A DNA stretch of 35,947 nt from Dehalococcoidia bacterium (lineage in GTDB: Bacteria > Chloroflexota > Dehalococcoidia > E44-bin15), in NCBI GenBank assembly GCA_004376075.1, contig SOJQ01000083.1, positions 1-35,947 of the forward strand, in the 5' to 3' direction. The notes under the pieces are model-generated. The model was not told where the DNA came from. It did not search any database and was given only the letters and a program-made list of their open reading frames with translations. Positions 14,087-20,451 of this stretch are shown in pieces (positions within the stretch are counted from its first letter, which is position 1; every line of letters begins with the position of its first letter). A program made the translations under genes and the position numbers.

Positions 14087-16663
14087 ATGATCCCGATTAA
14101 GCTGGCGCTGAGAAACTTCATGTGCTATCGAGAAAACGTGCCACCCCTTTCCTTCGATGGTATTCATGTGGCCTGCCTTTGTGGCGACAACGGCAATGGA
14201 AAGTCGGCACTCCTCGATGCGATGACCTGGGCGCTTTGGGGGGAGGCAAGAGGTGTCGAGCGCAAGAACTCCGACAACCTTGTGCATCTAGGCCAGAGGG
14301 AGATGAAAGTGGAGTTCGAGTTTCTTGCTGGTCCCAATCGATACCGCGTCCTTCGCGGGTGGACCAAATCAAGCCCAACGCGCAGGGGTGGCGGTCACCT
14401 GGAACTACAGCTTGCCACAGAGGCCGGCTTTAAGCCCATCACAGGCAACACGATGGACGAAACGCAGCAGAAGATCACCGAAATCCTGCGCATGGACTAT
14501 GATACCTTCATTAACAGCGCCTTCCTCCTCCAGGGTCGCGCTGATGAGTTCACTGTTAACTCGCCCTCGAAGCGGAAGGAGATCCTGGCCGATATCCTGG
14601 GCCTTTCCTTTTACGATGAGTTGGAGGAGCGAGCAAGAAATTATGCCAGGGAGAGGGAGCGAGACAAAAAGGAGCTGGAGAGCGACATCAAAGATATAGA
14701 CGATGAGCTGGTCCACAGAGAGGAGTATGAGATTCAGCTTAGGGGGGTGATGGAGGCAATCGGTGAATTGGAAAGGGAGTCGGAAAAACAGGAGGGCAGG
14801 GTCAATGCATTGCAAAAGCAAAAGAACGAACTCGATCTAAAGAGGGAGCAATTAGCGGAGGTGGACAGGCGCATTGTCCAGGCGGAGGGAGAGCTTTCCT
14901 ACCTTATGAGCCAGGTCTCAAACCAGCGTCGCCGCGTGGAAGAATATGAAAAAGTCATCGCAGAGCGGATGGCGATAAGGGGAGGATTTCATCAGCTCCT
15001 TGAAGTAAAGAGGGAAAACGAAGAGCTAAACAATAAACTTAGGGCACTGCTTAACATAAATGAAAGGAAAGCCAGGCTGCAGCAGCTGGTGGAAAAGGCA
15101 AAGGGCGAATTGGTCGCCGAGAAAAGGATTGGGGGAAGCAAAATTGAGCAACTGGAGCCCAAGGTCAATATGCTGGCGAGATTTGAAGAGGAGTTAACCG
15201 AGGCAAGGGGGCGACTCGATGAGGTGGTGGGATGGGAGGAGGAGCTTCTCAAGAAGAGGCGCCTTTCCCAGGAGCTTTCAAGCCAAATCAGCCTCCTCGA
15301 GTCCAGGGGTGCCCAGCTTGAGGAGGAGATAAAGACGCTGGAGGAAAAGCTTGACCTGCTCTCCCAAGAGGAGGCGAGATGCCCCTTATGCGAGACGGAG
15401 CTTGGCGTCGAGGGGCGCGACAGGATCGTGGCCAAATATGAAGGTGAGAGAAGGGTGAAAGCGGATGCCTATCAGGCAAATCGGCAGGAGATTGACCGGG
15501 GAAGGAAAGAGCACCGCTCTTTGGAGGGAGAGGTTATCAATTTGGAGGGAAGGATAAAAAGGGAGCGAGCAGCGGGGGAGGGTCGGGTGGTCACCTTGGA
15601 AAGCAAGATTGCCGAGGCGAGGCAGGCTAAACTGGAGATCGCTGAGGAAAGGGTGCGCCTCAGCGAGGTTGAGGAGCGCCTAGCGAAGGGGGAGTTCGCC
15701 CTTTCCGAGCAGGAGGAGCTTAGGGAGGTGCTGAACCAGCTAGAGGAGCTGGCATACCACCCAGAGAGACATCGGGAGGTGCAGCACCGCTTGGCTGAGC
15801 TTGAAGGTTATGAGGAATTACATCGGCGGCTTGAGGAGGCTGAAAGCCTTATCTGGAGAGAGAGGGAGAGCCTGGCACAGGCGGAGCGGGCTGCCTCCAC
15901 TAAGCAAAGAGACCTCTGGGAGGATGTCCAAAGGAGGGAGGCCTTATCTATGGAACTTGCTGCCCTCCCCGAGCTGCTAAGTAGCCTGAGCAGTGCCCAG
16001 CAAGTCCTTGAGGAACTGCTCCAGCGCCAGCGCAACGGGCGTGATAGATTGGTGGAGCTTCAAACAAGGCTTGAGCACCTCGCCTCTCGGGAGCGGATCA
16101 GGGCGGAAAAGGAAGAGGCATTGCTCCAGGCCTCCAGGGAAAAGGGGATTTATGAGGAGTTGGCCGCTGCCTTTGGCAAGAAGGGGATTCAGGCTTTGAT
16201 CATCGAAACGGTGCTCCCTGAGATCGAGGAGGAGGCGAACAGGCTCCTTTCAAGGATGACCGATAACAGGATGCATATAAAGATGGAGCCCCAGCGTGCC
16301 TACAAGACCAGGAAAGGGGAAGAGGAGACCCTGGATATAAACATATCGGACGAATTAGGCACCCGCTGCTACGAGATGTATAGCGGCGGCGAGGCCTTTC
16401 GCATCAACTTCGCCCTGCGCATCGCCCTCTCCAAGCTCCTGGCGCGGCGGGCGGGGGCTCCATTGCCGACATTGATCATCGATGAGGGATTTGGCACCCA
16501 GGACACCGGCGGCAGGGAGAAATTGGTCGAGGCCATAAACTCCATTCAGGACGACTTTGAGAAGATCCTGGTCATCACCCACATCGAGGAGCTCAGGGAC
16601 GCCTTCCCGGTGCGCATCGAGGTCACCAAAACCGCCGAGGGCTCGATGATCGAGGTGAGCTAG
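14087..16663 (+). CDS. sbcC: SbcC/Rad50-family SMC-like ATPase with a zinc hook
   Basis: It has Walker A (CGDNGNGKSALLDAMTWALWG), a very long E/L/R-rich coiled coil with a central CPLC hook (ARCPLCETEL), the signature motif YSGGEAFRINFALRIALS and Walker B (LIIDEGFGTQD). GGAGG lies 6 nt upstream of the ATG. Confidence 0.85.
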   Translation: MIPIKLALRNFMCYRENVPPLSFDGIHVACLCGDNGNGKSALLDAMTWALWGEARGVERKNSDNLVHLGQREMKVEFEFLAGPNRYRVLRGWTKSSPTRRGGGHLELQLATEAGFKPITGNTMDETQQKITEILRMDYDTFINSAFLLQGRADEFTVNSPSKRKEILADILGLSFYDELEERARNYARERERDKKELESDIKDIDDELVHREEYEIQLRGVMEAIGELERESEKQEGRVNALQKQKNELDLKREQLAEVDRRIVQAEGELSYLMSQVSNQRRRVEEYEKVIAERMAIRGGFHQLLEVKRENEELNNKLRALLNINERKARLQQLVEKAKGELVAEKRIGGSKIEQLEPKVNMLARFEEELTEARGRLDEVVGWEEELLKKRRLSQELSSQISLLESRGAQLEEEIKTLEEKLDLLSQEEARCPLCETELGVEGRDRIVAKYEGERRVKADAYQANRQEIDRGRKEHRSLEGEVINLEGRIKRERAAGEGRVVTLESKIAEARQAKLEIAEERVRLSEVEERLAKGEFALSEQEELREVLNQLEELAYHPERHREVQHRLAELEGYEELHRRLEEAESLIWRERESLAQAERAASTKQRDLWEDVQRREALSMELAALPELLSSLSSAQQVLEELLQRQRNGRDRLVELQTRLEHLASRERIRAEKEEALLQASREKGIYEELAAAFGKKGIQALIIETVLPEIEEEANRLLSRMTDNRMHIKMEPQRAYKTRKGEEETLDINISDELGTRCYEMYSGGEAFRINFALRIALSKLLARRAGAPLPTLIIDEGFGTQDTGGREKLVEAINSIQDDFEKILVITHIEELRDAFPVRIEVTKTAEGSMIEVS

Positions 16664-16741
16664 AGATTGACAGCGGGGAAGAAGCTTTTGCAAAGCAAAA
16701 ATTTCGGTGAGTGCCATAAGGCACAAACCTTTTATGCTGTG

Positions 16742-18046
16742 TTATGTGCAGTGCTGTATATTCGAAGCCTTCCATGATTCTCTATTCTTTTTTTTATCGA
16801 AAGATGGAATTGCATCAAAACTAACTTCATTTCCATCTGTTATATCAGGTGGCAAATCTGACTTATAACAGAAAAAGGATTGCTCGTCTTTTGCAATAAT
16901 AAAACAGAATGGACGGTCGCTCCGACCTAAACTTACTTTACCAACAAGTCCCTTTTTTACTTTGCGTTTCTTATATGACAAGTTCTTTAAGTTGTTCTCT
17001 TTACCCAGTAGTTTGCTCCACTCAGTTCGGCAAATACTCAATGCTTCTTTTAGAGAAGATGGCTCCTTGTTATTGCCAATAATTTTATTTAAATCATCAA
17101 CAGTATTTATTATAGGCTCAGGTACAGTCCATCCCTTTTCATTTCTAACGTATTTGCATAGGACAAGGTGGGCTCTGGCTTCTTCGTAATTTCCCAGCTC
17201 CTTGCAGAGGATTCCAATATCTACAAATAGGGATACCATAGATTCAAGTTTTGAATGACCACTAGCAGCTTGGTACATTAATTTTAAAGCGTCTTCTCTG
17301 CGGCCTATATCTCTAACTACTTTTGCATACTCATGAAGCATCCACCAGTCAGGCTTATAATCACTACTTAGATTTTGATAAATCCTTTCTGATTCAGGAA
17401 GGTTGCCAAGAAGATGGTTTGCTAAGGCCTTAAGTCGCAGGAGGAATTTTCGTTGTCTAGGGAATCGTTCTAGAATTTCATCGACTATACTTATTGCTTC
17501 TTTTGCATCCCCTTTTTCAATGAGCCCGTTTATACGGTAGTTATACCAGAGAGATTGATCACTCCATCCTTCCCTACCTGTATCATCTATCATAGGGTTC
17601 GTACTAAGAGAATCCGGAGCAATTTTAACCACCCATTCATTAACAGTCTCCCAATGATTAGAAGACTTGGCTGATTTTAACACTTTAAAAACTGTTAGCT
17701 TTGCAGCTAAACCGGTGGGGTTCAAGCTCATTATTCTGTTGGCTGTCTCTACTACCCTTTCAAGAGATTCTTCCTCGCCTAATTTATTAAGTACTCCTTG
17801 GATGTAAACCCATATAACTTCATTTCGGCACCATTCAAAATCAGGATATTTAGCGATCAGTTCATCGGCAAGAACGATTGCCTCATCAAACAATTCTAGT
17901 TTTCTAAGACAGTGAAGAAGCCCAGCACCATCAAACTCATCTCCTGTTTCTTTCCATAAATCTTTGTAGAGTAGGAGAGCTTCTCTGAAATTCTTTACTT
18001 TTCTAAGTTGATTAGCTTTCTGTTTCTGTTCTGTTATGTCAGCCAT
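16742..18046 (-). CDS. TPR-repeat protein with a C-terminal degenerate cold-shock/OB-like domain (island gene C)
   Basis: About 350 aa consist of helical-repeat sequence with TPR-like A/L/Y/W periodicity (e.g. FREALLLYKDLW, FDEAIVLADELIAKYPDF, AKEAISIVDEILERFP, REDALKLMYQAA, YEEARAHLVLCKYV). The last ~70 aa (GKVSLGRSDRPFCFIIAKDEQSFFCYKSDL...GNEVSFDA...SWKASNI) align with the Csp at 20452-20655. Confidence 0.7.
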   Translation of the reverse strand: MADITEQKQKANQLRKVKNFREALLLYKDLWKETGDEFDGAGLLHCLRKLELFDEAIVLADELIAKYPDFEWCRNEVIWVYIQGVLNKLGEEESLERVVETANRIMSLNPTGLAAKLTVFKVLKSAKSSNHWETVNEWVVKIAPDSLSTNPMIDDTGREGWSDQSLWYNYRINGLIEKGDAKEAISIVDEILERFPRQRKFLLRLKALANHLLGNLPESERIYQNLSSDYKPDWWMLHEYAKVVRDIGRREDALKLMYQAASGHSKLESMVSLFVDIGILCKELGNYEEARAHLVLCKYVRNEKGWTVPEPIINTVDDLNKIIGNNKEPSSLKEALSICRTEWSKLLGKENNLKNLSYKKRKVKKGLVGKVSLGRSDRPFCFIIAKDEQSFFCYKSDLPPDITDGNEVSFDAIPSFDKKKNRESWKASNIQHCT

Positions 18047-18060
18047 ATTCTATATCTCAG

Positions 18061-19002
18061 CTATTTATTAAGAACCTCAGCAGTGATCTTGAAATGCAAT
18101 TTTGCCACCTTCCGGAGCTCCTCTCTCCCATGTACATCGGCAAACCTCTTTGCATTTTCCACAACCGCCTGTGATGCACCTTTAGGCAAGTCAATTTTAT
18201 ATTCATTTGATAGTTTAGACAGTTTTTCTAAAAACCTTGCTCGGGCTAGAATCGATGCCGCTGCAACAGCTATATGCTGTTCTGCTTTATGCATTTGTAT
18301 TAGTTTAATCCTTTTACCTTTTTCCTGAAGTTTGCTTTGGATAAAGCTTTCATCGGCAAATTGGTCAGCAATTGCAACTTTGCAATCTACTCTAGAAAGA
18401 ACTTCTTCTATCGCTTTTGCATGTCCCCAAGCAAGTAATGTATTTAAATTCTTCTTTTCCCTTTTAAATTGCTCGTATAAGTCATTATACTTTTCTGGAG
18501 ATATTTCAATAATCGCAAAACGCCCCTTACATATTTTTGCTACTTCCCGAGCAAGCTCTAAGTTCTTACTATCGCTAAGTTTCTTGCTATCCTTGACACC
18601 ACATTCAATCAAATCTGTCGCAGATCGCTCATCTACATAGACACCAGCGCTAACTAAGGGCCCGAAATAATCACCTTTGCCAGATTCATCTGTACCAATT
18701 ATGGGTAATCCTAATGCAACATCTTTCTTGCTTGATTTTTTTGAATCGGATGATATTCCTTTATCTTCTATCAAAGTTTGGATTTTTATACCATTTACTC
18801 CACCTTTAAGTTGCGAATAATCAATTTTCAAAATACCTTTTTTGTTCTGATAGATTCTAATTACTCCTGACCAGTCAAGAATAGATACGGTAAACTGCAA
18901 ACCATAATCAATCAATTTATAGTCAGAGACATTGATATTGTCAACTTTCAGTATCGATTTTATATGTTCATACACTTCAAGAAGTCTATTTCCTTGTTCC
19001 AT
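18061..19002 (-). CDS. rnhC: RNase HIII (island gene B)
   Basis: The type-2 RNase H core matches RNase HIII as I remember B. subtilis RnhC: IIGTDESGKGDYFGPLV (D/E codons at 18685-18690), VKDSKKLSD, IADQFAD, HKAEQHIAVAAASILARARF, DLPKGAS and AKLHFK. It also has an N-terminal DUF3378/TBP-like domain (VIRIYQNKKGILKIDY). I prefer ATG 19002, which lies 8 nt after AAGGGG; GTG 19011 is the ORF-track start. Confidence 0.85.
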   Translation of the reverse strand: MEQGNRLLEVYEHIKSILKVDNINVSDYKLIDYGLQFTVSILDWSGVIRIYQNKKGILKIDYSQLKGGVNGIKIQTLIEDKGISSDSKKSSKKDVALGLPIIGTDESGKGDYFGPLVSAGVYVDERSATDLIECGVKDSKKLSDSKNLELAREVAKICKGRFAIIEISPEKYNDLYEQFKREKKNLNTLLAWGHAKAIEEVLSRVDCKVAIADQFADESFIQSKLQEKGKRIKLIQMHKAEQHIAVAAASILARARFLEKLSKLSNEYKIDLPKGASQAVVENAKRFADVHGREELRKVAKLHFKITAEVLNK

Positions 19003-19014
19003 GTAACTCACCCC

Positions 19015-20118
19015 TTATTTTGGAAGTAAAGGATAAAAGCCATTAAAATAGTCAAATATTTCTTTTGTATCTTTAAATATGGTGTTGACCTTTTCCTCTG
19101 CCCCTTCTTGCGAATCAACTTTGGTAATTTTACTCTCGTCACTGTGCATCATAAAATGACGGCTCATATCAAGACATAAACTTATTTTTTTAAGCATCGT
19201 GTCTCCGTACTTTTCTTTATCGCAAATGGCCTTTCTTTTCAAATGTGTGCGATCACTCAGAGTGGAAAAATTGGCATTTTTTGTCTTAAAATGATCTGTC
19301 TCAAAAAGTCCTATATCAATAAGAAGTTTTTTTGCAAAACCCTCAAAAGCCTTAGAAGCAGGCATCACTAAAGGAGAGAACTCCGGTAGAGGAATTTTGG
19401 TTAAGCAAAGGCATTCGGATGCTACAAACCATTTTCTGTCGTAAGGTTCAAGATAGTCATAGACATCCCCTATTTTTTCTTTTACCTTATTCTCCGCTAT
19501 AACTATAAGTTGAGGCGTATATTTAGCAGCAAAAATTTCCAAATTCTTTTCATCGCTTGATATAAATCTGGCTATTACTTCCTTATCTGATGGGCTGGCA
19601 ATTCTTTCGACCAGGTCACAGCTATCATTAAAAAGCTTGTCCGTTTTACCTTGAAGCAATAAAGTGCCATTATTAAACTGCGTCAAGGTTAAAGAAGAAC
19701 CATTTCTGGTAGTTTTAGCTCTATATTCGATAACAGAGGTTGAACTTTCAGTAATTTCTACTGTTGCTTCAAGCGTATTTAAAGCCTCTTTTATTTCTGT
19801 TCTGAATTGAGGTAGCATAATGTCATACCTTGTTGTACATGCTTTTATTTCTGATGTCTCGTGTCCAAGAAAAGACAGCGGATTGGCTTCAAACTCCCGT
19901 TTTAATTTCTCCATCTCAGCCTTCAATGAGTTTTGTTTGCCTTGAAGCTGCACTGTGCCATTATAATATATTTTAACTATTGTTCTTTCAGATAAGTTTG
20001 ATATATCAATTCTCAAGTTGTTTGATTCTTCAGATTGCTCGACCTGGTAGCTTCTACTATCACAGTAATCTGTAAACACTTTTGCTCTTTCATAAGTATT
20101 GGGAATAGATTTAGGCAT
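19015..20118 (-). CDS. RnlA/LsoA-like HEPN endoribonuclease toxin (island gene A)
   Basis: It has two TBP-like repeats (IVKIYYNGTVQLQGK and LTLTQFNNGTLLLQGK) resembling the RnlA NTD/NRD and the RNase HIII N-domain. The C-terminal domain carries the HEPN R-x4-H motif RHFMMH (residues 320-325, nt 19144-19161). E. coli RnlA has ERHSLFH at almost the same position, as I recall it. AGGGGG lies about 10 nt upstream of ATG 20118. Confidence 0.7.
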   Translation of the reverse strand: MPKSIPNTYERAKVFTDYCDSRSYQVEQSEESNNLRIDISNLSERTIVKIYYNGTVQLQGKQNSLKAEMEKLKREFEANPLSFLGHETSEIKACTTRYDIMLPQFRTEIKEALNTLEATVEITESSTSVIEYRAKTTRNGSSLTLTQFNNGTLLLQGKTDKLFNDSCDLVERIASPSDKEVIARFISSDEKNLEIFAAKYTPQLIVIAENKVKEKIGDVYDYLEPYDRKWFVASECLCLTKIPLPEFSPLVMPASKAFEGFAKKLLIDIGLFETDHFKTKNANFSTLSDRTHLKRKAICDKEKYGDTMLKKISLCLDMSRHFMMHSDESKITKVDSQEGAEEKVNTIFKDTKEIFDYFNGFYPLLPK

Positions 20119-20146
20119 CTCTTAAACCCCCTAAAGTATTTCTATG

Positions 20147-20175
20147 ATATAACCCCTTTCATTACTTGCTTCCAA
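20147..20175 (-). promoter_or_regulatory. Putative promoter of the island operon
   Basis: On the minus strand: TTGGAA (20175-20170), a 17-nt spacer and TTATAT (20152-20147), about 30 nt upstream of the gene A start. It is a weak -10 match and a sequence match only. Confidence 0.25.
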
Positions 20176-20451
20176 AGGCATTTCATATAACATCGTATTA
20201 GACGAACTCGCTTGCCCAGAGCGGGACTGGAAACCGGCCAACCTACAGCCCCAGCTCCTCACTGCCTTCACATCATCGGAAACTTCAACGGGGGGTGATC
20301 CGCTGATTCAGCTCTGGAACTCATGTATCAGGAGCAAGCTCCGATATGGTGAAACCTGCACCTTCAGGTGTTTCCTGGTGATCGATAACCAATCCGTCTA
20401 GCGCTGGGGCTAAATCAGGCCCTATAGGTAATACCTTGATACCCCCTTGCG

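Follow-up and report, generated by a model that had tools for sequence, protein, structure and literature searches.

Introduction

The endoribonuclease RnlA, a HEPN protein, acts on mRNA and has its activity modulated by RNase HI, and the N-terminal TBP-like domain of RNase HIII binds RNA:DNA hybrids. HEPN domains of the RNase LS type have been described in fusion with RNase H and with the TBP-like domain of RNase HIII, with RNA in DNA-RNA duplexes as the inferred target (Anantharaman et al. 2013, PMC3710099). The TOTE conflict systems (for TPR, OB, TBP, Effector) are defined by genes for TPR-CSD and TBP proteins, often with RNase H domains, according to the secondary description available in a 2025 preprint by Bell and co-workers (PMC12458937), which cites Aravind, Iyer and Burroughs 2022. 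Integrons, for their part, have been recorded from Chloroflexota, Spirochaetota, Planctomycetota, Bacteroidota and Archaea, and toxin-antitoxin (TA) and restriction functions are common in their cassettes (PMC9668308). Here we analyse three adjacent genes, A, B and C (the triad), in an AT-rich island of contig SOJQ01000083.1 (assembly GCA_004376075.1) from a Dehalococcoidia bacterium; the window is the stretch from position 1 to 35,947 of this contig. A encodes a protein that is RnlA/LsoA-like by predicted fold, B an RNase HIII, and C a TPR protein with a C-terminal OB-like barrel.

We find that the triad is very probably a conserved TOTE-type conflict module. An earlier reading made from the letters alone (the original prediction) had held that the A-B-C architecture matched no named system; this fails because the architecture is already catalogued, the finding which that reading had itself set against its claim, under TOTE, in the TOTE models of Pfam and in a TPR/cold-shock hidden Markov model of PADLOC. 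The triad's architecture belongs to a computationally described class, of which the window copy is a well-preserved further member. The new point is that the triad is, to judge from its ends in many hosts, a discrete integron-type cassette of ~3.5 kb. That it is a horizontally acquired cassette of this kind, encoding a three-component TOTE-class anti-invader system, is an account we hold to be probable, with some reserve.

Results

Homologous loci were collected from two seeds and are referred to below by L numbers. Seeding with A, one genome per species, gave 16 loci, five of them ended by contig ends, and all 11 that hold enough sequence carry A, B and C in this order on one strand, with A identity down to 43%. 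These come from Sumerlaeota, Spirochaetia, Dehalococcoidia, Bacteroidota (including the cultured Reichenbachiella agariperforans), Planctomycetales, Ignavibacteriales, Syntrophaceae and ANME/methanogen-related archaea. Seeding with C gave 80 metagenome loci, of which 64 extend 2.1 kb or more beyond C on its upstream side, and the triad is present in 59 of these 64; across loci the gaps between its genes are nearly always <25 nt. The question whether B and C are conserved neighbours of A, raised by the original prediction, is thereby answered in the affirmative in both sets, and the functional linkage it claimed for the three genes is supported by this conserved neighbourhood together with repeated fusion of A to B. 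Chance adjacency of unrelated cargo genes has the prior alone in its favour, in that islands collect unrelated genes, but the order and strand kept in 11/11 and 59/64 loci, gaps of a few nucleotides and the recurrent fusions leave it a negligible probability.

The family of A is rare: of 1.84 billion representatives searched, 190 (clusters at 50% identity) are related to it, and 46 reach E <= 1e-30. In each of the ten long relatives tested, which have 585-774 aa, an RnlA-like protein is fused to a C-terminal type-2 RNase H (RNase_HII family), and in L090, counted among the 59 loci above, A and B are joined in a single 610-aa protein (TBP, TBP, HEPN, RNase HIII) that keeps the Rx4H motif. The recurrence of these fusions makes A and B a single functional unit. 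Dehalococcoidia, ANME and Aenigmarchaeota archaea, Petrotoga and others have homologues in common at 70-90% amino-acid identity.

The five C-seeded loci that lack the triad have the most divergent C proteins (44-50% identity), and C-like proteins were also found beside partners other than A and B. A 279-aa protein directly upstream of C replaces A and B in two loci (L096:5116-5955, L097:2394-3233) and combines an N-terminal TBP-like repeat motif with a TIR domain of the CAP12/Pycsar type. In two further loci (L093:3539-5842, L099:3645-5954) the position upstream of C is taken by a fusion of ~768 aa, made up of a Lon-like (Lon_C/ChlI-like) part, TBP-like repeats and RNase HIII; the same gene is split in two in L098:3645-5954. 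The motif sGTLxLQGK of A's repeats is met again in the TIR protein, at its N terminus, as well as in the Lon-like and fusion proteins. As read from these loci, C-like proteins are the constant partner of exchangeable effectors that bear the TBP-like repeat motif.

The cultured Petrotoga sp. HKA.pet.4.5 (JGVT01000003.1) retains C as a remnant of ~45 codons with an in-frame stop (L017:12040-12300), beside intact A and B, A being a called full-length open reading frame (ORF). A frameshift breaks C in L007 and an interruption does so in L079, both from a metagenome-assembled genome (MAG) or metagenome, with A and B showing full-length similarity to the window proteins; a broken A was met in L049 only. 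The counts of C loss are small, and some of the breaks may be assembly errors. This pattern weakens the idea in the original prediction that C might be the antitoxin, and C is probably not an essential one. Taken together with the swapping of effectors, the loss of C beside intact A and B favours C as a sensor or adaptor needed for activation.

The same observations bear on the reading of the triad as a type II TA (addiction) cassette, in which A would be the toxin and C or B the antitoxin, and which would stabilise integron arrays or genomic islands with defence as a secondary effect. Such a cassette would account for the full RnlA/LsoA architecture of A with its intact catalytic residues, for the NCBI name of some A homologues (type II toxin-antitoxin system RnlA family toxin) and for the HicAB pairs that adjoin the cassette in L018, and among the functions annotated for integron cassettes of bacteria and archaea TA is the commonest (PMC9668308). 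However, no small RnlB-like ORF is conserved between the triad genes and there is no space for one, the gaps being 3-14 nt in nearly all loci; nor do B and C match any RnlB-type family in Pfam, NCBIfam or PADLOC. The absence of an RnlB-type antitoxin noted in the original prediction is thus borne out, and the triad is not an RnlAB system because the small antitoxin is absent and has no room. Moreover, C lost three times (Petrotoga, L007, L079) with A and B kept, against a single broken A, is the reverse of what an essential antitoxin would predict; B, were it the antitoxin, would be a catalytically intact enzyme repeatedly fused to its toxin; and the pairing of C-like proteins with TIR and Lon-like effectors better fits a shared sensor or adaptor than a cognate antitoxin. 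We regard an addiction cassette as unlikely.

The product of gene A is, in its predicted fold, RnlA/LsoA-like, with two TBP-like repeats followed by a HEPN domain (Table 1). It passes the cut-off of Pfam RnlA-toxin_DBD (32.3 bits; cut-off 27) and gives weaker Pfam matches to RnlA_toxin (N-terminal repeat), HEPN_RnaseLS and DUF3378 (the RNase HIII N-terminal domain); the matches to PF15935 and PF11858 speak for its TBP-like domains. The AlphaFold2 (AF2) model has a pLDDT of 77, rising to about 90 in repeat 1 and over most of the HEPN domain, and its ten best Foldseek matches in the PDB are all RnlA or LsoA over the full length at probability 1.00, with E-values from 5e-11 (RnlA) to 1.5e-5 (LsoA); TBP itself is among the weak matches. 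Gene A also contains a 29-nt direct repeat with copies 291 nt apart, which is explained by the two TBP-like repeats. K256 and E259 of A align with R255 and E258 of RnlA when the A profile is compared with 6y2s, assuming an inferred offset of 15 residues between that chain and native RnlA numbering, while R320 and H325 were assigned to RnlA R318 and H323 from motif and position. All four residues are invariant across 34 A homologues, and R320/H325 are retained in relatives at 43% identity; in the L090 fusion the motif reads RCKEMH. As a separate observation, residues 20-77 of A, in repeat 1, weakly match the PADLOC single-gene candidate PDC-S35 (E 1.2e-4), which may also have a TBP-like N-terminal module.

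B passes the equivalog cut-off of NCBIfam TIGR00716 rnhC (201.5 bits; cut-off 161.2), matches Pfam RNase_HII at E 1.6e-33 and is similar to RNase HIII entries of the PDB (4py5, 1.6e-31; 2d0a, 5e-25). Its residues D108, E109, D216 and E244 align with D97, E98, D202 and E232 of the active site of Geobacillus (Bst) RNase HIII, of which D97 and E98 are catalytic, so that the DEDE site is intact.

C is predicted to consist of a TPR solenoid, a disordered linker and a five-stranded beta-barrel with strands at residues 364-372, 380-385, 390-394, 407-417 and 422-432 (AF2 model, pLDDT 91.5). TPR_14 and TPR_19 are matched above their cut-offs, and the PADLOC model PDLC01170 ('TPR ... fused to cold shock-like domain (OB-fold)') covers C at near full length with E 1.4e-23; the PDC-M16B phage-defence-candidate models of PADLOC match at 1e-10 to 4e-7. 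In the family of C, DUF7017 is matched by 21/21 members (best E 7.7e-14) and S1CSD-TOTE-2 by 15/21. A Foldseek query with the whole C model returned generic TPR proteins alone, the small barrel not being separately resolved by a query of this kind. A parallel may lie in human SAMD9/SAMD9L, which is described with a 'TPR-OB' module (bioRxiv 10.64898/2026.02.02.703423) that would likewise join a TPR scaffold to an OB fold in an antiviral effector.

The assignments of the original prediction thus stand for all three proteins: an RnlA/LsoA-like HEPN protein with R320/H325 in RHFMMH (by Pfam, fold and conservation in 34 homologues), a full-length RNase HIII with D108/E109 (by TIGR00716 and the aligned DEDE residues) and a TPR protein ending in an OB/cold-shock-like domain (by AF2 model, TPR_14/TPR_19 and PADLOC). 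Of the checks it had proposed, Foldseek returned RnlA/LsoA for A, as expected, and PADLOC the near-full-length TPR/cold-shock-like model for C.

The traits of a TOTE system are found across the triad and its relatives. C supplies the TPR protein with a C-terminal OB domain, A the TBP-like domains, and the neighbourhood is conserved with exchangeable effectors; the effector trait is present as an intact HEPN Rx4H motif and RNase HIII DEDE site, with TIR and Lon-like plus RNase HIII as alternatives elsewhere. For a TBP-like domain on B alone, there is an N-terminal domain weakly similar to A's repeats. Window C weakly matches the Pfam entry titled 'S1/CSD-like domain 2 of the TOTE conflict systems'.

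The triad lies in DNA of foreign composition with sharp ends. The cassette has a G+C content of 36.7% (30-40% in 300-nt windows) against 54.7% in the left flank and 57.9% in the right, and similarity to 93 related loci at the nucleotide level breaks off abruptly at ~20191 and ~16679-16681, reaching 20208 in a few of them. In other hosts the cassette remains at 30-40% G+C in flanks of 29-61%. The three minus-strand ORFs are separated by 3 nt (A-B; 12 nt from the ATG of B) and 14 nt (B-C). The original prediction had described an abrupt G+C drop, a foreign island and three close-packed minus-strand ORFs in an operon-like arrangement; all of these are borne out, its 12-nt gap holding when counted from the ATG of B.

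Both ends of the cassette resemble integron recombination sites. At the 5′ boundary the GTTATAT of the window is a GTTRRRY-type core site, and other copies start with GTTAGGT, GTTATGT, GTTATAT or GTTAGCG at the same position; in L002, L005, L022 and L031 it also closes a preceding attC-like element just upstream of A. Full copies end 3′ of C with ACATAAC, A, CAGCATAAAAG, variable hairpins, CTTTTATGCTG, GGAAC and GTTATAC, the R''-L''...L'-R' layout. The attC assignment was made with our own covariance model (R1), not with the attC model of IntegronFinder. R1 matches the window at 16643-16754 with 88.7 bits; over 19 distinct copies pairing reaches 83% of pair cells, compared with 32-50% in slid controls, and the inner hairpin shows compensatory changes. 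Aligned with 18 full copies, the window departs after ...GCTTCTT, at 17 nt from where the SbcC-like gene has its stop codon, so that the arms L' and R' are missing from its site. Simpler searches were less sensitive: a test for exact inverted repeats of 9 nt recovered the attC-like element from just 11/85 loci, a first heuristic attC detector was too strict (7 sites, of which none fell on the site of the cassette itself in the 15 loci listed), and the same detector, once relaxed, reported 19 sites (2 in shuffles) but passed over most copies owing to their asymmetric arms, where the covariance model succeeded.

R1 finds an attC-like element after C in ~35 loci, with a second match downstream of the first in L028, L043, L078 and L023. 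L024 has four matches on the same strand, three of them each after one or two further ORFs. The cassettes 3′ of the triad there (L024:7395-11348) encode, in this order, a GNAT acetyltransferase with a PmbA/TldD-like peptidase, a second GNAT protein, and a DUF6998 protein, each followed by an attC-like element. A divergent integron integrase lies ~640 nt upstream of A in L050 (L050:1560-2307, minus strand), spread over three reading frames, which suggests a pseudogene or an assembly error. Its pieces score 66, 110 and 142 bits against TIGR02249 (sum ~318; cut-off 265), far above XerC/D, and have 48-60% identity to IntI1, which served as a probe only. Weaker IntI-like C-terminal fragments on the cassette strand were found at L012:3354-3524, L042:32-271, L002:4734-4937 and L040:656-841, those of L012 and L042 ending just upstream of A; they may represent an inverted-integrase layout or remnants.

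In many loci with unrelated upstream flanks a leader of ~66-73 nt is kept 5′ of A. It contains TTGGAA, 17 nt and TTATAT, as well as a GGAGG-type ribosome-binding site, and may be a cassette-borne promoter; L018 has a ~29-nt deletion inside it. The possible promoter that the original prediction had placed at 20147-20175 does fall inside this conserved leader, but a sigma-70 consensus scan did not call the TTGGAA-17 nt-TTATAT site, and promoter-like sites there were no commoner than in shuffled sequence. Around the island, searches for flanking repeats (direct or inverted), for tRNA genes and for consensus promoters or terminators gave no excess over chance, and an Rfam scan gave no match. The database entry for window protein A is a hypothetical protein of a Dehalococcoidia MAG.

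The flanking genes of the window are of a housekeeping kind: an MBL/RMMBL nuclease, a Rad50/SbcC-like ATPase with zinc hook, a 67-aa CSD protein, an HD protein and UvrA. This suits a module of nucleic-acid housekeeping or repair, there to clear R-loops or RNA primers, in which B would be the cell's RNase HIII and the adjacency to sbcC and uvrA functional, since the Rad50/SbcC-like, MBL/RMMBL, HD and UvrA genes all flank the island and B passes the rnhC equivalog cut-off. However, a repair neighbourhood is conserved in none of the other loci examined, where flanks vary and often hold defence genes; the composition is foreign and the ends identically sharp in hosts of 29-61% G+C; and homologues of 70-90% identity are spread across Dehalococcoidia, archaea and Petrotoga in a family of only 190 clusters. 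As the neighbourhood is not conserved, we rejected B as a housekeeping RNase HIII and the repair flanks as a functional link, and consider a repair module very improbable.

Elsewhere the triad has defence genes as neighbours: type III restriction-modification (R-M) and a UvrD helicase in Petrotoga (L017), two HicAB pairs, RtcA and SIR2 in L018, a type I restriction endonuclease and AbiU/AIPR in L024, a DRT reverse transcriptase and type II R-M in L012, and NsnA/PD-T4-2 with a type III methyltransferase in L023. Around the loci with other effectors, the TIR-bearing L096 and L097 have a RuvC-like protein and a TrwB/TraG-like ATPase farther upstream, which suggests a conjugative element as their setting, and the Lon-like fusion is preceded by a dnstrm_HI1420 'antidote'-like protein, in L099 also by a Fic-domain protein.

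Table 1. Features of the triad and its cassette, with positions in the window
Feature	Position	Strand	Remarks
Foreign cassette (leader, A, B, C, truncated attC-like site)	16680..20191	minus	From similarity ends and G+C
5′ boundary GTTATAT (GTTRRRY-type core site)	20185..20191	minus	From alignment of other copies
Conserved leader 5′ of A, GAAATGCCTTTGGAAGCAAGTAATGAAAGGGGTTATATCATAGAAATACTTTAGGGGGTTTAAGAG	20119..20184	minus	Kept in many loci with unrelated upstream flanks
Gene A	19015..20118	minus	367 aa
A, TBP-like repeat 1 (~aa 6-83)	19870..20103	minus	Alpha/beta unit, pLDDT ~90; motif NGTVQLQGK; weak TBP fold matches
A, TBP-like repeat 2 (~aa 93-173)	19600..19842	minus	Internal repeat D1; motif NGTLLLQGK; PF15935 at residues 132-167
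A, all-helical HEPN domain (~aa 179-359)	19042..19584	minus	PF19034 at residues 208-325
A, Rx4H catalytic motif RHFMMH (R320-H325)	19144..19161	minus	R320/H325 invariant in 34 homologues
Gene B	18061..19011	minus	316 aa, GTG start; in-frame ATG 9 nt (three codons) downstream
B, divergent N-terminal domain (aa 1-95) and type-2 RNase H catalytic domain (aa 101-313)	18061..19011	minus	
Gene C	16742..18046	minus	434 aa
C, TPR solenoid (aa 1-347), disordered linker (aa 350-359), five-stranded beta-barrel (aa 364-432)	16742..18046	minus	
C, C-terminal OB / S1-CSD-like barrel	16751..16957	minus	PF22707 at residues 401-430
Truncated attC-like site	16680..16747	minus	L' and R' arms missing
attC-like R'', ACATAAC	16741-16747	minus	Overlaps C stop codon
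attC-like L'', CAGCATAAAAG	16729-16739	minus	
attC-like inner hairpins	16711-16724 and 16684-16696	minus	

Discussion

We propose a model for the triad that fits the architecture of its proteins and their partners in other loci, its specific sensor-scaffold mechanism being put forward tentatively. In this model A and B would act as a two-headed RNase, the RNase HIII cutting the RNA strand of RNA:DNA hybrids and the HEPN domain cutting single-stranded RNA. C would serve as sensor and scaffold, its OB barrel binding single-stranded nucleic acid and its TPR groove docking the effectors through their TBP-like repeats. Nucleic acid of an invader, such as hybrids of replication and transcription or single strands, would license the nuclease activity of A and B, and the outcome would be either destruction of invader transcripts and primers or abortive infection. 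The binding of hybrids by the TBP-like domain of RNase HIII and the modulation of RnlA by RNase HI fit the proposed mechanism. It is likewise possible, at no higher probability, that the triad is an immune module unlike RnlAB, with C as a positive sensor, the HEPN domain and RNase HIII coupled, and spread across domains of life as an integron cassette.

As for the copy in the window, it is best read, on its sequence and ends, as a horizontally acquired integron-type cassette of ~3.5 kb that was inserted outside an integron and then fixed. The abrupt AT-rich island is explained by an inserted cassette. With the 3′ arm of the attC-like site gone, the cassette would be trapped between the Rad50/SbcC-like gene and csp.

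Several points weigh against this account of an anti-invader cassette. With regard to its mobility, R1 and integrase searches of the 36-kb window gave no integrase and no second attC-like site, an absence which, together with the missing L' and R' arms, is best read as insertion outside an integron followed by fixation; copies were found neither in plasmids (tblastn with A) nor in phages (tblastn with C), and the setting of the cassette in the window is one of DNA-repair genes rather than defence genes. With regard to the proteins, the profile of A is only marginally similar to RnlA among PDB sequences (E 0.98), for which reason the comparison had to be made by fold, and the basis of the link from A to RnlA is that fold together with Pfam PF19034. 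The N-terminal domain of B, weakly similar to A's repeats, has no Pfam match. Window C falls below the cut-offs for DUF7017 (25.3 bits; cut-off 27.5) and S1CSD-TOTE-2 (18.6; cut-off 27), and its barrel gave no BLASTP alignment with the adjoining host Csp, so that we do not name it a canonical cold-shock domain. The filing under TOTE rests on the secondary description in PMC12458937, the names of database models and our tests of architecture, and in the searchable literature we found no experiment on the triad or on any TOTE system. We infer the A-B-C complex, its trigger, its targets and the defence phenotype from sequence, and with them the binding of C to A and B and the sensing of nucleic acid.

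TOTE is so far a computational prediction, and the triad with its ~100 relatives offers a compact 3.4-kb prototype with intact catalytic sites. The natural A-B fusions and the variants that have lost C, including that of the cultured Petrotoga, are direct experimental handles, and the triad could bear both on the tie between RnlA and RNase H and on the role of TBP-like domains in immunity. Packaging as an integron cassette would explain the sharp AT-rich island, and would make the triad one multi-gene defence unit exchanged among distant bacterial phyla and archaea at 70-90% protein identity. If a sensor module is indeed passed on as an integron cassette, this would be among the clearest cases of the recent sharing of an immune system across domains by way of integrons.

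Compared with RnlAB and LsoAB of E. coli, A has the same three-domain fold and counterparts of four catalytic or substrate residues, and the tie of the triad to RNase H echoes the reported stimulation of RnlA by RNase HI; however, A has only 15-17% identity to RnlA in structural alignment (sequence E ~1), and the triad is without RnlB or LsoB and has an RNase HIII and a TPR-OB protein in the antitoxin's place. The A-B fusions are of the same kind as the 'two-headed' RNases of the RNase LS group (PMC3710099), which have a caulimovirus-like type-1 RNase H where the triad has a type-2 RNase HIII, split or fused, and to which it adds an obligatory third gene for a TPR-OB protein. TALON (PMC12458937) and PADLOC PDC-M16 share a TPR-CSD protein with the triad, TALON also TBP proteins, but the YprA helicase and the NERD nuclease at the core of TALON are both absent here, and A and B match none of the models of PDC-M16.

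Likeness to integron cassettes (Ghaly et al. 2022, PMC9668308) extends to the discrete unit, the GTTRRRY cores, the attC-like palindrome, arrays in the same orientation and an intI, as well as to near-identical cassettes being common to Bacteria and Archaea. The triad differs in its size, three genes in 3.5 kb where most cassettes are a single short ORF, and the window copy in lying outside any integron with its 3′ arm lost. The likeness to TOTE systems, compared here by secondary description, lies in a TPR-S1/CSD OB protein with TBP-effector partners, in the frequent RNase H domains and in the swapping of effectors. The triad, divided into an RnlA-type HEPN protein, an RNase HIII and a TPR protein with a single OB domain, may correspond to one of the described TOTE subtypes; the window C differs in falling below the Pfam cut-offs for the TOTE-associated models.

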